A DNA stretch of 8,466 nt from Candidatus Woesearchaeota archaeon (GCA_964468425.1 CAYXSZ010000045.1:1-8466); one strand, 5' to 3'; counted from the stretch's first letter, positions 1 through 5,388 are shown. Notes: generated by a model from the sequence alone, not told the origin. Program-made: numbers and translations.

Positions 1-1073
1 TCTCTTTTGATGAGTGGTTTGTTAACCTGTAAAGGAATAGGATATATTAATTTAGACATCGAAGCTTCTCCACTAAGAAATATCTTAGTTCCGCAACAAG
101 GACATCTATTTTTATTTAGATTCACTTTATGAACGCAAAATCCTTCTCTTTTTATTAGTAAACTTCCACAGTTTGGGCAGTACGTATTTTCTAGTGGATG
201 ACCTGGTACGTTTCCGAGGTAGACGTAATTTATTTCCTCTTCCTTAGCGATTTCTGCATGCTTTTCAAGGATTTTTAGTGGAGTCGCAGGAAAGTCTTTC
301 ATCTTGTAGCTTGGAAAGAATCTTAAGAAATGTATATTCGAATTTTCTCCGAGAACCTCCTTTAAAAACTTACAAAGTCTTTTACATTCGCTTAAGTCAT
401 CTCCAACTTTAGGAACTACTAGATCTGTGATCTCAACGTGAACACTTTTTTTGTATAATTCTTCAATTGCGTGAAAAACGGGTTCGTAGCTCCTAATTAG
501 AATGTAATTTCTAGCGAATTTGTCGCTCCCATTTCCTTTTATATCTATTGTTATCGCATCCAGGAACTTTGAGGCAAAATCGATCGCCTCGTCAGTTAAA
601 TATCCGTTTGAAACCCAGGTTACCTTAAAACCCTCGTTTTTAGCGAGCTTTGCAACATCTTCACAGTATTCGGGATAGATCGAAGGCTCATTGTATGTAA
701 AGCAAATGGAAATTAATCCATAGCTTTTTAGGTCTCTTGCAATCTCTACAATCTCGCGTGGTTCGATCTTGAAGCCAACAACTTCCTTTCTTTGTGAAAT
801 ATCGTAGTTCAAACAGTATTTGCATGCCCAGGAGCATCCTGTCGTTCCCAACGACAATGCCGTGTGTCCTGGATAAAAATGGTAAAATGGCTTCTTTTCG
901 ATAGGATCTAAAGCTATCGAGCTAAAAATCCCATAATTTAGGCAAATGAGTTTGCCGTTAATGTTGTATCTCGTTCCACAGAATCCGTGGAGATTTTTCG
1001 GGATATTACATTTTCTGGCACATGCTAAACATTCTATTCTATCGTTAATCTTTCTGAACAATTTTCCTTCCAT
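1..1073 (-). CDS. amrS: Radical SAM enzyme, AmmeMemoRadiSam-system (AmrS) / PflA-like activase family; the 3' end runs off the left edge (357 codons in window)
   Basis: Absent from the supplied ORF track because no stop codon lies in the window. My translation of the minus strand from the ATG (1073..1071) stays open to position 3 and gives exactly 357 codons: MEGKLFRKINDRIECLACARKCNIPKNLHGFCGTRYNING...SSIALDPIEKKPFYHFYPGHTALSLGTTGCSWACKYCLNYDISQ...CPNCGSLLIKREGFCVHKVNLNKNRCPCCGTKIFLSGE.... It has the CX3CX2C radical-SAM cluster motif (C80, C84, C87), an N-terminal C15-x2-C18-x3-C22, the DPIEKKP motif typical of the AmrS family, and a C-terminal pair of CxxC motifs (zinc ribbon). Confidence 0.85.
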   Translation of the reverse strand, partial: MEGKLFRKINDRIECLACARKCNIPKNLHGFCGTRYNINGKLICLNYGIFSSIALDPIEKKPFYHFYPGHTALSLGTTGCSWACKYCLNYDISQRKEVVGFKIEPREIVEIARDLKSYGLISICFTYNEPSIYPEYCEDVAKLAKNEGFKVTWVSNGYLTDEAIDFASKFLDAITIDIKGNGSDKFARNYILIRSYEPVFHAIEELYKKSVHVEITDLVVPKVGDDLSECKRLCKFLKEVLGENSNIHFLRFFPSYKMKDFPATPLKILEKHAEIAKEEEINYVYLGNVPGHPLENTYCPNCGSLLIKREGFCVHKVNLNKNRCPCCGTKIFLSGEASMSKLIYPIPLQVNKPLIKR

Positions 1074-1158: not shown

Positions 1159-1184
1159 ACGACAATTATAACGACGCACGACGC
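1159..1184. repeat. ACGAC/GTCGT repeat cluster. On the minus strand it reads GCGTCGT GCGTCGT TATAAT TGTCGTGAA.
   Basis: ACGAC occurs at 1159-1163, 1171-1175 and 1178-1182. ACGACGC is a perfect tandem 7-mer (1171-1177, 1178-1184), and the second copy overlaps the first base of the YjbQ stop codon (1184-1186). The organisation matches the 2668-2716 array: two tandem GTCGT units, an A/T-rich block, then TGTCGTGAA. Confidence 0.4.
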
Positions 1185-1734: not shown

Positions 1735-2661
1735 CTATTTTCCTAGTCTTTTCATAATATCTTTTAAATATGTTGGGTTAATCTCATAGTAGACCTTCTT
1801 ATTTTCTTCAACTCTTATTAGCAATCCTCTCTCAACAAGTCTAGAAACTTGTTTTGAAACTGTGTTATATGGAAGGGAAGTCAGCTCTGCTAATTGCTTA
1901 ACGGTTAATTTATTGCTAATTAGTTTTTCAAGTATTTTTTCTTGTTGTGGAGATATTTTGAGTGCTTCTACCTTATCTTCTTTGGTTTCAAGCAACTCTT
2001 TGTTCAAAACACCTTCGAGAGGATGTTCTAACTCGCTTAGAATCTTGTTTAATTCTATTAAAACAGATCTTACGCATCTATCGTTCTTTTTAATTAACTC
2101 TCGTAAAAATTTTTCATCAACCTCTATTTTTTCATTTAAACGAGTTTTTACAATTTCAACGATTGTTTCTTCATCCGGAAACTCTAGATAAATCTTTCTG
2201 TAAATTCTGTTTGTAAACGATGGAGGAGCATTGACGTTTTCTGAAACTTGAATTAAAAAAAGAGAATGGACCTTCCGAGCATCGTAGAGAGCTTTTACAC
2301 ATTTAATTGCAGCTTCGTTTAGATTCTGGAACTCATCTATGATTAATACGATCGGTTTTTGATCTCTAACTTTAAAGAACAAATATTTCTTGTACATAAC
2401 ATTCTCAACCAATTTCCTGATGTTTGGACTGCTTTCCTCTTCGGCGTTAATGTAGATAAAATTGTATTTGTTTCGAAGTTTTTTAAGAATCTTCAAAGCT
2501 AGCGATGTCTTACCACAGCCAATTGGACCGTATAGGAGAAATATCTCCCCGCTTTCAATAGAATTTGTTACTTGTCGTTCGATGTCTTCTAGGCCTAAAA
2601 CGTTGTCGTTTGGTCTGATGTCTAGGGGGTTGCTCTCGAAACCATAATGTTGCCACCACAT
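1735..2661 (-). CDS. ExeA-like (AAA_22-type) AAA+ ATPase fused to a C-terminal winged helix-turn-helix; predicted ATP-dependent DNA-binding protein
   Basis: 308-aa ORF with ATG at 2661. The N-terminus HYGFESNPLDIRPN resembles the ExeA-type Y..FG...PF opening. Walker A is GPIGCGKT and Walker B is VLIIDEF. The C-terminal LTVKQLAELTSLPYNTVSKQVSRLVERGLLIRVEENKKVYYEINP is a classic ArsR/MarR/TrmB-type wHTH. It is shorter than Orc1/Cdc6 and lacks that family's typical length and lid region. Confidence 0.8.
   Translation of the reverse strand: MWWQHYGFESNPLDIRPNDNVLGLEDIERQVTNSIESGEIFLLYGPIGCGKTSLALKILKKLRNKYNFIYINAEEESSPNIRKLVENVMYKKYLFFKVRDQKPIVLIIDEFQNLNEAAIKCVKALYDARKVHSLFLIQVSENVNAPPSFTNRIYRKIYLEFPDEETIVEIVKTRLNEKIEVDEKFLRELIKKNDRCVRSVLIELNKILSELEHPLEGVLNKELLETKEDKVEALKISPQQEKILEKLISNKLTVKQLAELTSLPYNTVSKQVSRLVERGLLIRVEENKKVYYEINPTYLKDIMKRLGK
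1750..1770 (-). promoter_or_regulatory. Putative tRNA-Thr promoter (TATA-like box) embedded in the last codons of the upstream CDS
   Basis: The minus strand reads TATTTAAAAGATATTATGAA. TTTAAAAG (complement of 1761-1768) is centred about 31 nt upstream of the mature tRNA 5' end (1733), which would give a leader of about 5 nt. There is no intergenic space for a promoter, because the CDS stop codon ends at 1735. Confidence 0.4.
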
Positions 2662-2762
2662 AGATCATTTGTCGTTTTGTCGTTTTTAAAGATATTTGTC
2701 GTGTCGTGAAACGACAGCCAATGATAAGCAAAAGTATATATTTAAACAAGCATAAGATTTAA
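2662..2762. promoter_or_regulatory. 101-bp divergent promoter region for the AAA+-wHTH gene and the small-ORF/MinD-like operon
   Basis: The minus-strand TATA-like CTTTAAAAA (complement of 2683-2691) is centred about 26 nt from the ATG at 2661. The plus-strand TATA-like AAAGTATATATTTAAA (2731-2746) is centred about 24-26 nt from the ATG at 2763. This geometry implies leaderless or very short-leader mRNAs. Confidence 0.5.
2668..2716. repeat. TTTGTCGT direct-repeat array plus a TGTCGT-GAA-ACGACA palindrome; predicted operator or centromere-like site
   Basis: Perfect TTTGTCGT 8-mers lie at 2668-2675, 2676-2683 and 2695-2702. A further GTCGT is at 2703-2707, and the palindrome TGTCGTGAAACGACA spans 2702-2716. 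The repeats bracket the minus-strand TATA-like box. Two more TTGTCGT copies are inside the ATPase CDS, at 2572-2578 and 2603-2609. Confidence 0.55.
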
Positions 2763-3041
2763 ATGATCGTCGCTCCTGATGGTCAAAAAATTTACACACT
2801 CCCGGATCTTTTACTTTGGATTATCTCCCACCAAGATAATGCTCTTTCCTTCTTAAAATCTGAGAAACTTAAAGAGTGGTTGAAATCTGAAGGTTATGAA
2901 GATCTTTTAGAGGAGATAGAGCACACAGAGAGTGTGGATGATATTGTTAACGCGATTAAAAGGATGGTTTTCTCAGCTGATAGAGAAATCGTCATTTCGC
3001 GGGCTGAAGCGATTGAAAAAATTTTAAAGAGTGTGAAATGA
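2763..3041 (+). CDS. Small acidic helical protein of unknown function (92 aa), translationally coupled to the downstream MinD/ParA-type ATPase
   Basis: ATG at 2763. Its stop TGA (3039-3041) overlaps the next gene's ATG (3038-3040) as ATGA. I count about 18 acidic and 12 basic residues. No DNA-binding motif is recognisable, and I cannot assign a family from the sequence. Confidence 0.6.
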   Translation: MIVAPDGQKIYTLPDLLLWIISHQDNALSFLKSEKLKEWLKSEGYEDLLEEIEHTESVDDIVNAIKRMVFSADREIVISRAEAIEKILKSVK

Positions 3042-3712
3042 GAGTTGCAGTTGTTTCTCTTAAGGGAGGAGTCGGCAAGACATTCGTTGCTACAAACCTA
3101 GCGACATACCTTACACTTTATCACAAGAAGAAGGTGCTTTTGATAGATCTTAACGGCAAGATCGCCAATGCTTTCTTATTTACCAACGCTAATACCCAGC
3201 AAACAGAACATTTGTATCAAGGAATTCAAGTTACTCAGTTTTTCCATTTAAAACAGACAGATAAGGTGGAAGGTGACGTTGAGAAGGAACTAGAGCTCCT
3301 GGAAAAAGTTTATGACTTTATAGTTTTTGATGTTCCGCCTAATTTTCACAGGATAAAACAGGTTGAGCCATATGTAGATGTTGTATTATTGGTTACAAGT
3401 CCAACACTACTTTCACTTTATACTAACTTTCTACTTTACAAATTCTTAGATCAAAGTAAGGTGAAACTTGTAGTTAATATGTATGGAACTGGATTGGACT
3501 CTGAAATGATATCTGCTATATTCAAAAAGAATATTTCAGTCGTAATTCCCTACAGCAAGGATGTTCTAAACGCTGAAAATTATTTGGTTCCTTTAGTCGC
3601 CTGGAAGAAGAATTCAAAGGTTTCTCGAGCTATTGACGACTTAGCATATGTTTTAACCGGAATCAAGTTGAAGAGAGGTCTACTAGAACTTATTTTCTCC
3701 TTTTTCTTTTGA
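3038..3712 (+). CDS. MinD/ParA-superfamily P-loop ATPase (deviant Walker A) with a hydrophobic/amphipathic C-terminal tail
   Basis: 224 aa. It has the deviant Walker A SLKGGVGKT with signature lysine K9, the A' region VLLIDLN, Walker B FIVFDVPP, and the MinD-like VVIPYSKDVLNAENYLVPLV. The tail [16 protein letters not shown] is basic then hydrophobic. Confidence 0.88.
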   Translation: MRVAVVSLKGGVGKTFVATNLATYLTLYHKKKVLLIDLNGKIANAFLFTNANTQQTEHLYQGIQVTQFFHLKQTDKVEGDVEKELELLEKVYDFIVFDVPPNFHRIKQVEPYVDVVLLVTSPTLLSLYTNFLLYKFLDQSKVKLVVNMYGTGLDSEMISAIFKKNISVVIPYSKDVLNAENYLVPLVAWKKNSKVSRAIDDLAYVLTGIKLKRGLLELIFSFFF

Positions 3713-4624
3713 GTTGAAGTAGCTAGTTAGATAGTCCTTCGCGTATTCTAAGAACAACGGTCCGAGGAAAATGCCGGGAAATCCTAAGAGATAAAGTCCC
3801 CCCAATATTCCTACAAGAACTATCGCGGGGTTAATCGTAGATGTTTTTCCAACTAAAAGTGGTTTTACAACGACTTCCGCGAGAACCGTAATAACTAAAA
3901 TACCATATACGAATGTAATGGCTGCGAGAAAAATGTACCCTTTCCAAGCAAAGTAAGTGATTATAGGTAGCCATACAGTCCAGGGACCGAGAATTGGCAA
4001 AGCCGAAAAGATGAAAACTAGTATGGAAAGAATAAGCGCCGTCTCAAGTCCGAGAAGGGAGAATCCAATATAGCTTAGAAAAGCTTGGATTAGCCATAAA
4101 AGAATGTTTCCGACCACGATTCCGTAAAACTTCGAAACAGCTTTCTCCAATTCACTTTCTTCGATAAATCCAAGACTTAGAACGAAGTTTTCAACATCTT
4201 TAATGTGAACGAGGACATAATATGTGAGGAAAATAGAGATAACGTATCCTACCAGATCTTTAAATAAGTTTTGGACGAGATCGGACGCGTATTTTGCTAT
4301 AGCCCCTAAGATGTGAGGTAACAAAATTTGTATATATTTGTTGTTTAGAAACTGCTGAGAGTCAATGCTAACGCTAATTGTAGCAAATTCTGAAAATAAA
4401 TTTGAAATGATAGCGTAAACTGAAAATGCAAAAACTACCAATATAAACACGGTAGAAATCATTGCCGCTGCTCTTTTGCTGTGTGTTTTGCTTTGCACTT
4501 TTTGGTATAAGGGATAAACGATTCCAGCTAAGACAAACGAAAACAAAATGTATTTGAGAAAGGGACAAATTATTAAAAAAGAAACAGCGATTAGTGTGAC
4601 GAGTAGGTATTTCTTGTCGATCAT
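3683..4624 (-). CDS. AI-2E family transporter (PerM/UPF0118-type permease)
   Basis: 313 aa and polytopic, with roughly 7-8 hydrophobic segments. The family-like C-terminal half reads [19 protein letters not shown]...[37 protein letters not shown]. The ATG (4624..4622) overlaps the upstream gene's TGA (4623..4621). Confidence 0.82.
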
Positions 4625-5388
4625 CTAATAACTACTAGCTTTCTCCGCTTAACAATTCTATCTGGATGAACTATTATTCCCCTATCTGTTATTTCAAATT
4701 CGTGTCTGCGCATGTCGTGTTTTGTTCCACGCATCTTCCAAATTATCAAAGATCTCTTAAGTTCGCCTTCTATTTCGTCAAGATCTAGACGAATTATTCC
4801 ATCTACAGCGTGCTCCACTCCAAATCCACCGAAGCTTCTTTCAGCTACTGATACTTGTGAAACGAAGAATCCTGTTATTCCGTAACCAGAGAAGATCTTT
4901 TTGAGTTGAAGAACAGTCCTTCTCGCAACCGATGGCTTCGTAAGGTACAATGCCGTTACGGAGTCAATAACACCCCTTACCGGCAGTCTCCCTGTATTCT
5001 CCTTAATCCATTCTATAGCTTCTCTAACAGTATCTATTAACGCTCTAACATCTCCCGGATCTACAACTACAAATCTTTCTCGCTCCGCAGCCTTTCCAAT
5101 TCCACTAGTAAATCCATCAATGATCGCAAACATTCCTTTCTCTTCAAATGGCTTCGGATCCCATCCGAAGTTAGCCATGTTCTCTCTAATTGCTACGGGA
5201 TGTTCTTCTAGAGTGATATAAATTCCTGGTTCTTCTCTTTGAAGACCATAATATATATATTGTTGGGAAAATATTGATTTTCCCGTTCCAGCTCCCCCTG
5301 ATAGCAATACTACGTTTCTGCTAGGTATTCCTCCATTTAATAGCTCGTCCATCCCAGGAATCCCAGTTTCAACTCTTTTTATCACCAT
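4621..5388 (-). CDS. Single-domain KaiC/RecA-superfamily ATPase (archaeal KaiC-like, COG0467 type)
   Basis: 255 aa. Supporting motifs: [33 protein letters not shown] (Walker A), [20 protein letters not shown] (Walker B-like), and [28 protein letters not shown] (typical KaiC-like C-terminus). Confidence 0.88.

Follow-up and report, generated by a model that had tools for sequence, protein, structure and literature searches.

The locus and its genes

The subject of this work is a divergent trio of genes on a chromosome fragment from a marine-vent archaeon of the Nanopusillaceae (Nanoarchaeota), a stretch of 8,466 nucleotides (nt) (GCA_964468425.1, CAYXSZ010000045.1:1-8466) that is referred to in its entirety as the window. 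One strand encodes an AAA+ ATPase with a C-terminal winged helix-turn-helix (wHTH) domain, and the other a small acidic protein followed by an ATPase of the MinD/ParA family:

1735-2661, minus strand: AAA+-wHTH ATPase, 308 amino acids (aa)
2763-3041, plus strand: small acidic protein, 92 aa
3038-3712, plus strand: MinD/ParA-family (MinD-like) ATPase, 224 aa

The two plus-strand open reading frames (ORFs) share the tetranucleotide ATGA at 3038-3041, in which the stop codon of the small ORF overlaps the start codon of the MinD-like gene, and a spacer of 101 bp (2662-2762) lies between the small ORF and the AAA+-wHTH gene. The three ORFs, their overlap, the spacer and its TGTCGT repeats, all described in a first-pass annotation of this DNA, have proven real and conserved. 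Set against its relatives, the window appears to hold the stripped-down remnant of a seven-gene glycogen cluster, in which the three non-enzyme genes were left back to back. The explanation we favour, with about even confidence, divides them into two units, an autoregulated AAA+-wHTH regulator and a membrane-binding pair of MinD-like ATPase and small protein that was once coupled to a GT3 glycogen synthase.

The seven-gene cluster and the origin of the divergent layout

The flanking DNA of relatives of each trio protein was compared, with neighbouring genes typed by BLAST against reference proteins. Homologues of the trio occur almost exclusively in the Nanopusillaceae (Nanobdella aerobiophila, Nanopusillus, YN1 and related metagenome-assembled genomes, MAGs), with family matches numbering 41 for the AAA+-wHTH protein, at least six for the small protein and at least eight for the MinD-like ATPase. 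In more than 30 related loci the genes belong to a seven-gene cluster, in which the AAA+-wHTH gene follows GDE_C on one strand, GT4/5 diverges from GDE_C, GH57 converges upon GT4/5, and the small gene, the MinD-like gene and the GT3 glycogen synthase gene (PF05693) run in that order, divergently from GH57. Among its carriers are Nanobdella aerobiophila, YN1 and Nanopusillus acidilobi, each with a complete genome, as well as Nanobsidianus stetteri Nst1 and many MAGs. The AAA+-wHTH gene abuts or overlaps the end of GDE_C in most relatives. The small gene and the MinD-like gene overlap by 4 nt nearly everywhere, abutting instead in L008 and L031, and an overlap of this length likewise joins the MinD-like gene to GT3 in nearly all loci bearing GT3 (1 nt in L010), so that the small-MinD-GT3 order with such overlaps is found in nearly all of more than 25 relatives; GT3 is absent at the window locus.

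With absence scored at the trio locus on the contigs compared, all four enzyme genes are missing only from the window, L001 (75-81% identical to the window locus), L031 (62%) and L033, representing four lineages; the window locus itself recurs identically in marine hydrothermal-vent metagenomes (L027-L029). In these enzyme-less loci the AAA+-wHTH gene and the small/MinD operon are divergent neighbours. Judged by gene order, the divergent layout with a shared control region is therefore a derived state within one marine clade, and its origin is traced to two deletions, one removing GDE_C-GT4/5-GH57 from between the genes and the other GT3 downstream. The first-pass annotation had treated one shared control region as the basic design and the context as partition-like; the former is instead a product of these deletions, and the ancestral setting was glycogen metabolism. 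It had also put up for checking whether the genes co-occur and whether they stay divergent; the first holds, the trio co-occurring in the cluster, but not the second, the divergent arrangement being confined to the four enzyme-less lineages.

A similar contrast is found in the literature, where terrestrial nanoarchaea encode both synthesis and breakdown of glycogen and Nanoarchaeum equitans does not (PMC3655853, PMC4935971), and the enzyme-less marine clade fits this pattern. A motif-based genome scan turned up no N. equitans locus with the search motif.

The genes that remain are well preserved. Between the window and L001 the ratio of nonsynonymous to synonymous substitution rates (dN/dS) is 0.054 for the AAA+-wHTH gene and 0.031 for the MinD-like gene, with dS saturated, and the small ORF, whose conservation the first-pass annotation had left to be checked, shows proportions of nonsynonymous (pN) and synonymous (pS) differences of 0.23 and 0.79, respectively. 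Among four near-identical assemblies the small ORF has undergone synonymous changes only, apart from one single-base deletion in L028. In the spacer, identity of the window to L001/L033 is about 89%, even though synonymous sites are saturated. By these substitution patterns all three genes are under strong purifying selection following loss of the enzyme genes at the locus, which argues that they are not mere passengers of the enzymes, and that both units act beyond serving neighbouring enzymes. The evolutionary linkage that had been proposed for the trio is thus upheld: it forms one cluster in most Nanopusillaceae, and the same three genes outlast the enzymes, adjacent and under purifying selection.

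The L028 deletion falls in a run of C at codon 5 of the small ORF (around position 8507 of L028, equivalent to window position 2776 or so), and truncates it in this one of the four assemblies. It is probably an assembly or sequencing error, although it could be a strain-level frameshift. Transfer RNA genes are found beside the genes in two settings: the window tRNA-Thr gene abuts the AAA+-wHTH stop codon (1733/1735), and in Nanoclepta-type loci two tRNA genes (1354-1567 in L005) come next after GDE_C, where other loci have the AAA+-wHTH gene. Such genes may mark rearrangement boundaries.

The AAA+-wHTH protein

Profile matches above gathering thresholds (AAA_14, AAA and AAA_22, followed by a wHTH of the TrmB/MarR/ArsR type) confirm the AAA+ ATPase with C-terminal wHTH recognized in the first-pass annotation. 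The best Pfam match of the wHTH is TrmB (32 bits, cut-off 25.6), and Cdc6_C is not found among the winged-helix matches. The 'ExeA-like' label originally attached to the protein has no specific support, with TIGR03015 (ExeA/GspA-like) reaching 27 bits against a cut-off of 324.5 and the AAA_22 match (37 bits) being generic. Its AlphaFold2 (AF2) model is of high quality (predicted local distance difference test score, pLDDT, 90.8), and a Foldseek search places it nearest to RuvB, ORC1/Cdc6 and RFC subunits, all of AAA+-lid-winged-helix build (E ~1e-11). Invariant in 25 sequences are the N-terminus MWW..YGF..NPLDIRP, Walker A GxGKTSLA (K51), Walker B LDE (D109 and E110), R152 and R198, and the recognition helix of the window protein reads YNTVSKQVSRL.

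Full-length identity of the window protein to its Nanopusillus orthologues is 46-47%. Its syntenic position matches that of Nps_00355 of N. acidilobi, which carries the annotation arCOG03167 ('AAA+ ATPase fused to ArsR family HTH') and has been detected by proteomics. By homology and synteny, then, it is an arCOG03167 orthologue with the same domain architecture. N. acidilobi also encodes separate Cdc6-family proteins (Nps_00005 and Nps_02130). In the same organism (Wurch et al. 2016 Supplementary Data 1), the gene of a second arCOG03167 AAA+ protein, Nps_01660, has those of an NDP-sugar pyrophosphorylase and a glycosyltransferase close by. A more distant relative (38% identity) in L030 (1-6924) lies beside uncharacterised genes including one for a T2SSF-like (pilus/archaellum platform) protein, in a cluster with neither glycogen genes nor MinD.

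TGTCGT boxes and predicted promoters

The hexamer TGTCGT occurs 12 times in the window where 2.7 are expected, a count reached in none of 200 shuffles, and five copies fall within positions 2670-2716 of the spacer. The control elements of the region are:

2670-2675 and 2678-2683: two direct TGTCGT boxes, read as ACGACA in the AAA+ direction, between the AAA+ TATA-like element and ATG
2683-2690, minus strand: AAA+ TATA-like element TTTAAAAA, ~29 nt upstream of the AAA+ ATG, as read from the sequence
2697-2716: inverted-repeat putative operator TGTCGTGTCGT-gaa-ACGACA, with boxes at 2697 and 2702 and an inverted box at 2711
2735-2746, plus strand: small-ORF TATA-like element TATATATTTAAA, 28 nt upstream of the ATG at 2763
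2573-2578 and 2604-2609: two further TGTCGT boxes in the 5' end of the AAA+ coding region

Read in the AAA+ direction, the spacer thus runs TGTCGT-ttc-ACGACAcgaca, aatatc, TTTAAAAA, ACGACA-aa-ACGACA, aatgatct, ATG. The inverted repeat directly precedes the AAA+ TATA in this direction, and in the opposite direction it precedes the small-ORF TATA by 19 nt. An in-frame TAA at 2760-2762 fixes the start of the small ORF at 2763, and its TATA-like element is identical in L001 and L033. With TATA-like elements at these distances, leaderless transcripts are predicted for both the AAA+-wHTH gene and the small-ORF/MinD operon. The boxes at 2573-2609 are possibly extra operator sites, or else chance occurrences.

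The arrangement of TATA and boxes at the AAA+ gene recurs in L001, L031, L002 and L032. Both direct boxes (2670-2683) are kept in L001 and L033, and a box occupies the equivalent position in L002 and L032. Upstream of TATA, the window, L001, L031 and L032 all carry the inverted pair TGTCGT-N3-8-ACGACA, while L002 has a single TGTCGT box beside its TATA and an ACGACA box 22 nt further upstream. A prediction was tested: if the window protein binds these boxes, AAA+-wHTH proteins sharing its recognition helix should have TGTCGT boxes near the start of their genes. Loci encoding YNTVSKQ[VI]SRL (window, L001, L031, L002 and L032) contain 5, 5, 2, 3 and 4 boxes, respectively, within 120 nt upstream of the start, and all five have a TATA-like element with boxes on both sides. 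With other recognition helices no box was found in nine loci, and one box in L030.

The boxes accompany the AAA+ gene through three contexts, being opposite the small ORF in the enzyme-less loci, inside the 3' end of GDE_C in L002 and just after GDE_C in L032, and therefore belong to this gene rather than to the ATPase pair. None is found at the small/MinD promoter of L002 or in the relatives' other cluster promoters (GDE_C/GT4 and GH57/small), giving no sign that these boxes let the AAA+-wHTH protein act on the enzyme genes. The linkage to the AAA+ gene, the bracketing of its TATA and the restriction to one recognition helix together point to an autoregulatory operator rather than a centromere. 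The simplest reading of the boxes is negative autoregulation by the AAA+-wHTH protein. Boxes flanking or following the TATA element are the classical geometry of archaeal repressors, and those at 2670-2683 lie where such a repressor would block RNA polymerase. A parS-like site, in keeping with the comparison to partition systems made in the first-pass annotation, fares poorly against this, as the array tracks the AAA+ promoter in all three contexts and the small/MinD promoter of L002 lacks it.

A replication origin was also considered, with the AAA+-wHTH protein acting as an Orc1/Cdc6-like initiator on origin recognition box (ORB)-like repeats beside its own gene. The resemblance of its fold to ORC1/Cdc6, which goes no further than the overall three-domain architecture, and the presence of repeats, including an inverted pair, flanking an AT-rich stretch directly upstream of the gene, would suit this role. 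Yet ORB elements are far longer than the 6-bp boxes, and in L002 the boxes lie inside coding sequence. In most relatives the AAA+ gene abuts or overlaps GDE_C, leaving neither spacer nor boxes, the protein has a wHTH of the TrmB/MarR/ArsR type and no Cdc6_C match, and separate Cdc6-family proteins are available in N. acidilobi. An origin is accordingly very improbable, and this reading was rejected on the strength of the GDE_C abutment, the distribution of the boxes, the missing Cdc6_C domain and the separate Cdc6 genes.

Similar boxes appear elsewhere. Clusters of (T/C)GTCGT immediately follow the YjbQ stop codon in the window (1159-1180) and in L001 (3664-3691). The gene that comes after them differs, encoding a radical SAM protein in the window and topoisomerase IA in L001, where a TATA-like element comes shortly after the boxes. 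These clusters may be additional operator sites for the same factor, hinting at a small regulon. In addition, an inverted pair, TGTCGT-N5-ACGACA, is found at window positions 840-856, in a radical-SAM coding region at the left edge.

The MinD-like ATPase and its putative small partner

Matches to CbiA, AAA_31 and ParA and the motif KGGVGKT bear out the initial assignment of the second ATPase to the MinD/ParA type. The deviant Walker A KGGVGKT (K9 and K14), with its signature lysine, is invariant in 11 family members, and the protein has D37, an invariant Walker B (D98) and no cysteines. Its N. acidilobi orthologue is assigned to the broad arCOG00589, and true MinDs (Aquifex, Pyrococcus, Archaeoglobus) come first when the family profile is compared with solved structures, with BcsQ absent from the matches. 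This kinship is nonetheless remote, identity to generic archaeal MinDs being ~25-31% and the match to TIGR01969 (minD_arch) reaching 56.5 bits against a cut-off of 201.75. The C-terminal end of the protein deserves separate mention:

3659-3709, plus strand: C-terminal tail of the ATPase, a basic cluster then an amphipathic segment, predicted membrane-targeting helix

The tail consensus TGxKxK/RxxiLExIF is kept across the family, with a hydrophobic moment of 0.43-0.81 and a net charge of +2 to +5, so that the tail equals or exceeds classical MinD tails in amphipathicity; its conservation favours the membrane-targeting helix that the first-pass annotation had proposed as a putative feature. General rules for ParA/MinD-family (A/D) ATPases include an ATP sandwich dimer, partner binding via the N-terminus and a C-terminal membrane helix (PMC11407121), and the features of the MinD-like pair match these rules. 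No gene for MinC, MinE or another known MinD partner was found in the window or the loci compared.

The small protein, with an isoelectric point (pI) of 4.85 (4.6-5.8 across the family), is indeed acidic, as had been noted, and is encoded by a conserved partner gene that overlaps the gene of the ATPase in nearly every locus. Family members comprise 92-108 aa, the window copy being a shortened one, and share invariant D6, G7, K9, Y11, D15, L16, W19, W39 and E50. An exhaustive HMMER search recovered six representatives only, all 92-108 aa long, and no fusions or wider family. Domain scans gave no DNA-binding domain match, NCBIfam no match at all, and neither a sequence profile nor Foldseek identified a relative in the PDB, with BcsR, MinE and ParB-type folds not recovered. 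The AF2 model (pLDDT 82.9 overall, ~90 over residues 1-70) shows a beta-hairpin and then helices. The member from L005 matches DUF5752 (PF19027) at 25.2 bits (E 1.2e-5, threshold 23 bits), and five other relatives score 15.7-20.9 bits on the N-terminal half of the profile. The window protein is homologous to these DUF5752-matching members by alignment and HMMER, which weakly suggests a divergent DUF5752-like family with one above-threshold member. The family had first been called unrecognizable; this holds for the window copy, which gives no match, and not for its relatives.

According to Wurch et al. 2016 Supplementary Data 1, N. acidilobi encodes a second ATPase of the same arCOG00589 (Nps_03275/03280), and here, too, the gene of a small uncharacterised protein comes before it.

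Whether these proteins have anything to do with each other or with glycogen may be questioned, since inherited gene order only could account for their proximity. The pair would then serve cell division or general positioning and the AAA+ protein would be a general regulator, their present adjacency being an accident of the two deletions. Such an account gains from the frequency of 4-nt overlaps in compact genomes, from the persistence of both the pair and the AAA+ gene where the enzymes are lost, from the absence of the AAA+ gene from the cluster in some lineages and from the standing of MinDs as the closest solved relatives of the ATPase. It is harder to reconcile with the flanks of the cluster, which vary by lineage around an unbroken run of seven genes. 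Loss of nearly all synteny, and of many operons, has been reported for nanoarchaeotal genomes (PMC3655853), and persistence of the cluster and trio is therefore unlikely to be pure inertia. Moreover, the second arCOG00589 ATPase of N. acidilobi could be its general MinD, and the second arCOG03167 paralogue, too, is near sugar-nucleotide and glycosyltransferase genes. Outside the family, the closest MinD-like protein (P0052) has ordinary housekeeping neighbours, indicating that the small/MinD/glycogen association is family-specific. Gene order without functional relation is thus unlikely, though still to be reckoned with.

Two units or one machine

Under the two-unit explanation, the AAA+-wHTH protein would be an ATP-dependent, oligomerising DNA-binding regulator whose wHTH recognises the TGTCGT/ACGACA boxes bracketing the TATA of its own promoter and so represses its own transcription, probably with few other targets. 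In the second unit, ATP would drive the MinD-like ATPase into a sandwich dimer that binds the membrane via its C-terminal amphipathic helix. The small DUF5752-like protein would be its partner or adaptor, with contact probably made by the conserved N-terminal DGxKxY hairpin. Ancestrally, the pair is presumed to have been co-transcribed with the GT3 glycogen synthase and to have localised or regulated it, as BcsR-BcsQ does with cellulose synthase. Survival under selection without the enzymes implies that in the enzyme-less lineage it would have to serve another or a broader client.

Several observations weigh against this explanation. That the pair is kept where GT3 has been lost speaks against a role confined to glycogen synthase. 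In very compact genomes a 4-nt overlap also joins genes lacking any obvious link in function, as with the AI-2E transporter and KaiC genes of the window, and for this reason the small/MinD overlap counts for little as a sign of a complex. Neither the small protein nor the MinD-like one was detected in the N. acidilobi proteome, in which only about a third of proteins were detected. The DUF5752 profile does not match the window, L001 or L010 copies, and a single member exceeds its threshold. Finally, no operator was found in clades without TGTCGT boxes, and the co-variation of boxes and recognition helix is limited to one clade, so that its instances are not phylogenetically independent.

The first-pass annotation had suggested that the three genes may form a two-ATPase positioning module for DNA or cargo, or else a regulatory switch. 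In its most explicit form this would be an integrated positioning system with the AAA+-wHTH protein as ParB-like adaptor, the TGTCGT array as a centromere-like site and the MinD/ParA ATPase with the small protein as motor. Its appeal lies in the co-retention of exactly these three genes, adjacent to each other, after enzyme loss in four lineages, in their co-occurrence in one cluster in most family members, and in the inverted-repeat boxes placed between the two promoters of the window. The boxes, however, still bracket the AAA+ TATA in L002, where 4 kb separate the gene from the pair, and in L032, on a contig that has GDE_C alone upstream of it; they amount to only two to five six-base elements, and are lacking in most of the family. 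The tail of the ATPase is of the MinD-type amphipathic kind, with no ParA-type DNA-binding surface. The components also occur apart: Nanoclepta-type loci (L005/L014, L012 and L025) have small-MinD-GT3 and no neighbouring AAA+-wHTH gene, which is missing from their cluster, and the distant AAA+-wHTH relative of L030 is found near a T2SSF/pilus-like cluster without MinD. These separations speak for two units, and the single machine is the less likely of the two and in itself improbable.

Neighbouring genes

The other genes of the window encode proteasome alpha, SBDS, TFB, thermo_KaiC_1, an AI-2E transporter, YjbQ and tRNA-Thr(GGT). A left end without an ORF and a short TFB call both reflect genes that continue beyond the window. 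The MinD-like gene and the AI-2E transporter gene converge and share 30 nt at their 3' ends (3683-3712), at the place where relatives retaining GT3 have the MinD/GT3 junction. The AI-2E transporter and thermo_KaiC_1 ATPase genes form a conserved pair, with a 4-nt overlap, beside the cluster throughout the wider clade to which the window belongs (window 3683-5388; L001, L002-L004 and L031); this pair is not at that position in Nanopusillus, Nanobdella or Nanoclepta-type loci. About 7 kb from the trio, on the window's own contig (L027, 10907-12943), is the gene for a 678-aa GHL6-family protein, a putative glycoside hydrolase, so that some carbohydrate-related genes remain in the window lineage.

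A chromosomal position, syntenic among housekeeping genes across the whole family, is also relevant to the notion of an anti-phage defence or toxin-antitoxin-like NTPase module, which would draw on weak PADLOC matches to P-loop and wHTH parts of mad8, PDC-S01, IetA and Csa3. These matches are low-scoring and cover generic P-loop or wHTH segments only, and the domain scan found no nuclease or effector domains. The generic matches, the housekeeping synteny and the lack of effector domains effectively refute a defence function, which is barely credible.

Significance

The families of the trio are catalogued (arCOG03167, arCOG00589 and, weakly, DUF5752) yet uncharacterised. The literature searched does not mention DUF5752, PF19027 or arCOG03167 under these names, and none of the three has a characterised function; the first-pass annotation, likewise, had not recognised the combination as a described system. 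A more ambitious proposal, which we consider rather doubtful, sees the DUF5752-like/MinD-like pair as an undescribed A/D ATPase system whose ancestral cargo was GT3, a glycogen synthase of eukaryote type, or the glycogen granule, and which would tether, position or prime polysaccharide synthesis at the membrane of these ultra-small symbionts, with arCOG03167 as its dedicated ATP-sensing regulator; the marine clade would have re-used the trio for another client, such as a host-contact or division site. If true, this would add storage-polysaccharide metabolism to the cargos of ParA/MinD ATPases, among which a review of the field mentions nothing related to glycogen or storage polysaccharides (PMC11407121), and provide a handle on archaeal GT3 without glycogenin. 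Archaeal GT3 glycogen synthases are biochemically uncharacterised, and priming without glycogenin is an open question (PMC11046441). A MinD-like ATPase with a family-specific partner precedes GT3 in every hot-spring Nanopusillaceae sampled, and is a testable candidate for the missing accessory function.

The window itself is a natural experiment, in which the enzymes were discarded and three accessory genes kept, and offers a minimal set for experiments. An AAA+-wHTH protein with a readable operator likewise makes a tractable starting point for studying how transcription is controlled where regulators are very few. In practice, work with these organisms is limited by their being obligate symbionts that are hard to handle.

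Comparison with known systems

BcsR is a small protein encoded just upstream of BcsQ in enterobacterial cellulose synthase operons (bcsRQABZC), and BcsR-BcsQ would be the nearest functional counterpart of the pair, though no homologue of it. In both cases a small gene immediately precedes that of a MinD/ParA ATPase, and next after the pair, in the relatives of the window locus, comes the gene of a polysaccharide-forming glycosyltransferase. BcsQ is listed among the A/D ATPases that localise a polysaccharide synthase (PMC11407121). The likeness does not extend to the proteins, as the small protein has no sequence or fold similarity to BcsR, the BcsQ family PF06564 matches over residues 3-41 of the ATPase only, and TIGR03371 gives 31.4 bits against a cut-off of 157.85. 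In addition, the glycosyltransferase of the relatives is a cytosolic GT3 rather than a membrane GT2, and is gone from the window locus.

With MinD of the MinCDE system and its archaeal counterparts (arCOG00589, e.g., Haloferax MinD4) the ATPase shares the deviant Walker A with its signature lysine, Walker B and a basic/amphipathic tail. It differs in length (220-227 aa across the family compared with ~260), in having an upstream DUF5752-like partner instead of MinC or MinE, and in its ancestral coupling to GT3. ParABS and archaeal SegAB likewise have a Walker-type A/D ATPase, a small partner from the same operon and short repeats in the adjoining DNA, whereas here the partner is an acidic protein of the upstream gene in which no DNA-binding fold was detected, the repeats lie in the promoter of another gene, and the tail of the ATPase is MinD-like and not DNA-binding.

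The AAA+-wHTH protein resembles DnaA and Orc1/Cdc6 in joining an AAA+ module with an arginine finger to a C-terminal (w)HTH and in the array of short boxes in its own promoter, through which DnaA is known to autoregulate. It is nevertheless in neither family by sequence, coexists with separate Cdc6 genes and has no link to an origin. TrmB sugar regulators of the Thermococcales are comparable in their wHTH, which is the best match in Pfam, in the carbohydrate cluster and in boxes that flank or follow TATA. The AAA+ ATPase module is N-terminal, however, in contrast to the C-terminal sugar-binding domain of TrmB, and the domain scan found no sugar-binding domain. Taken together, the arrangement is a variant of the 'A/D ATPase plus partner' theme joined by an AAA+-wHTH regulator, and not a categorically new system.

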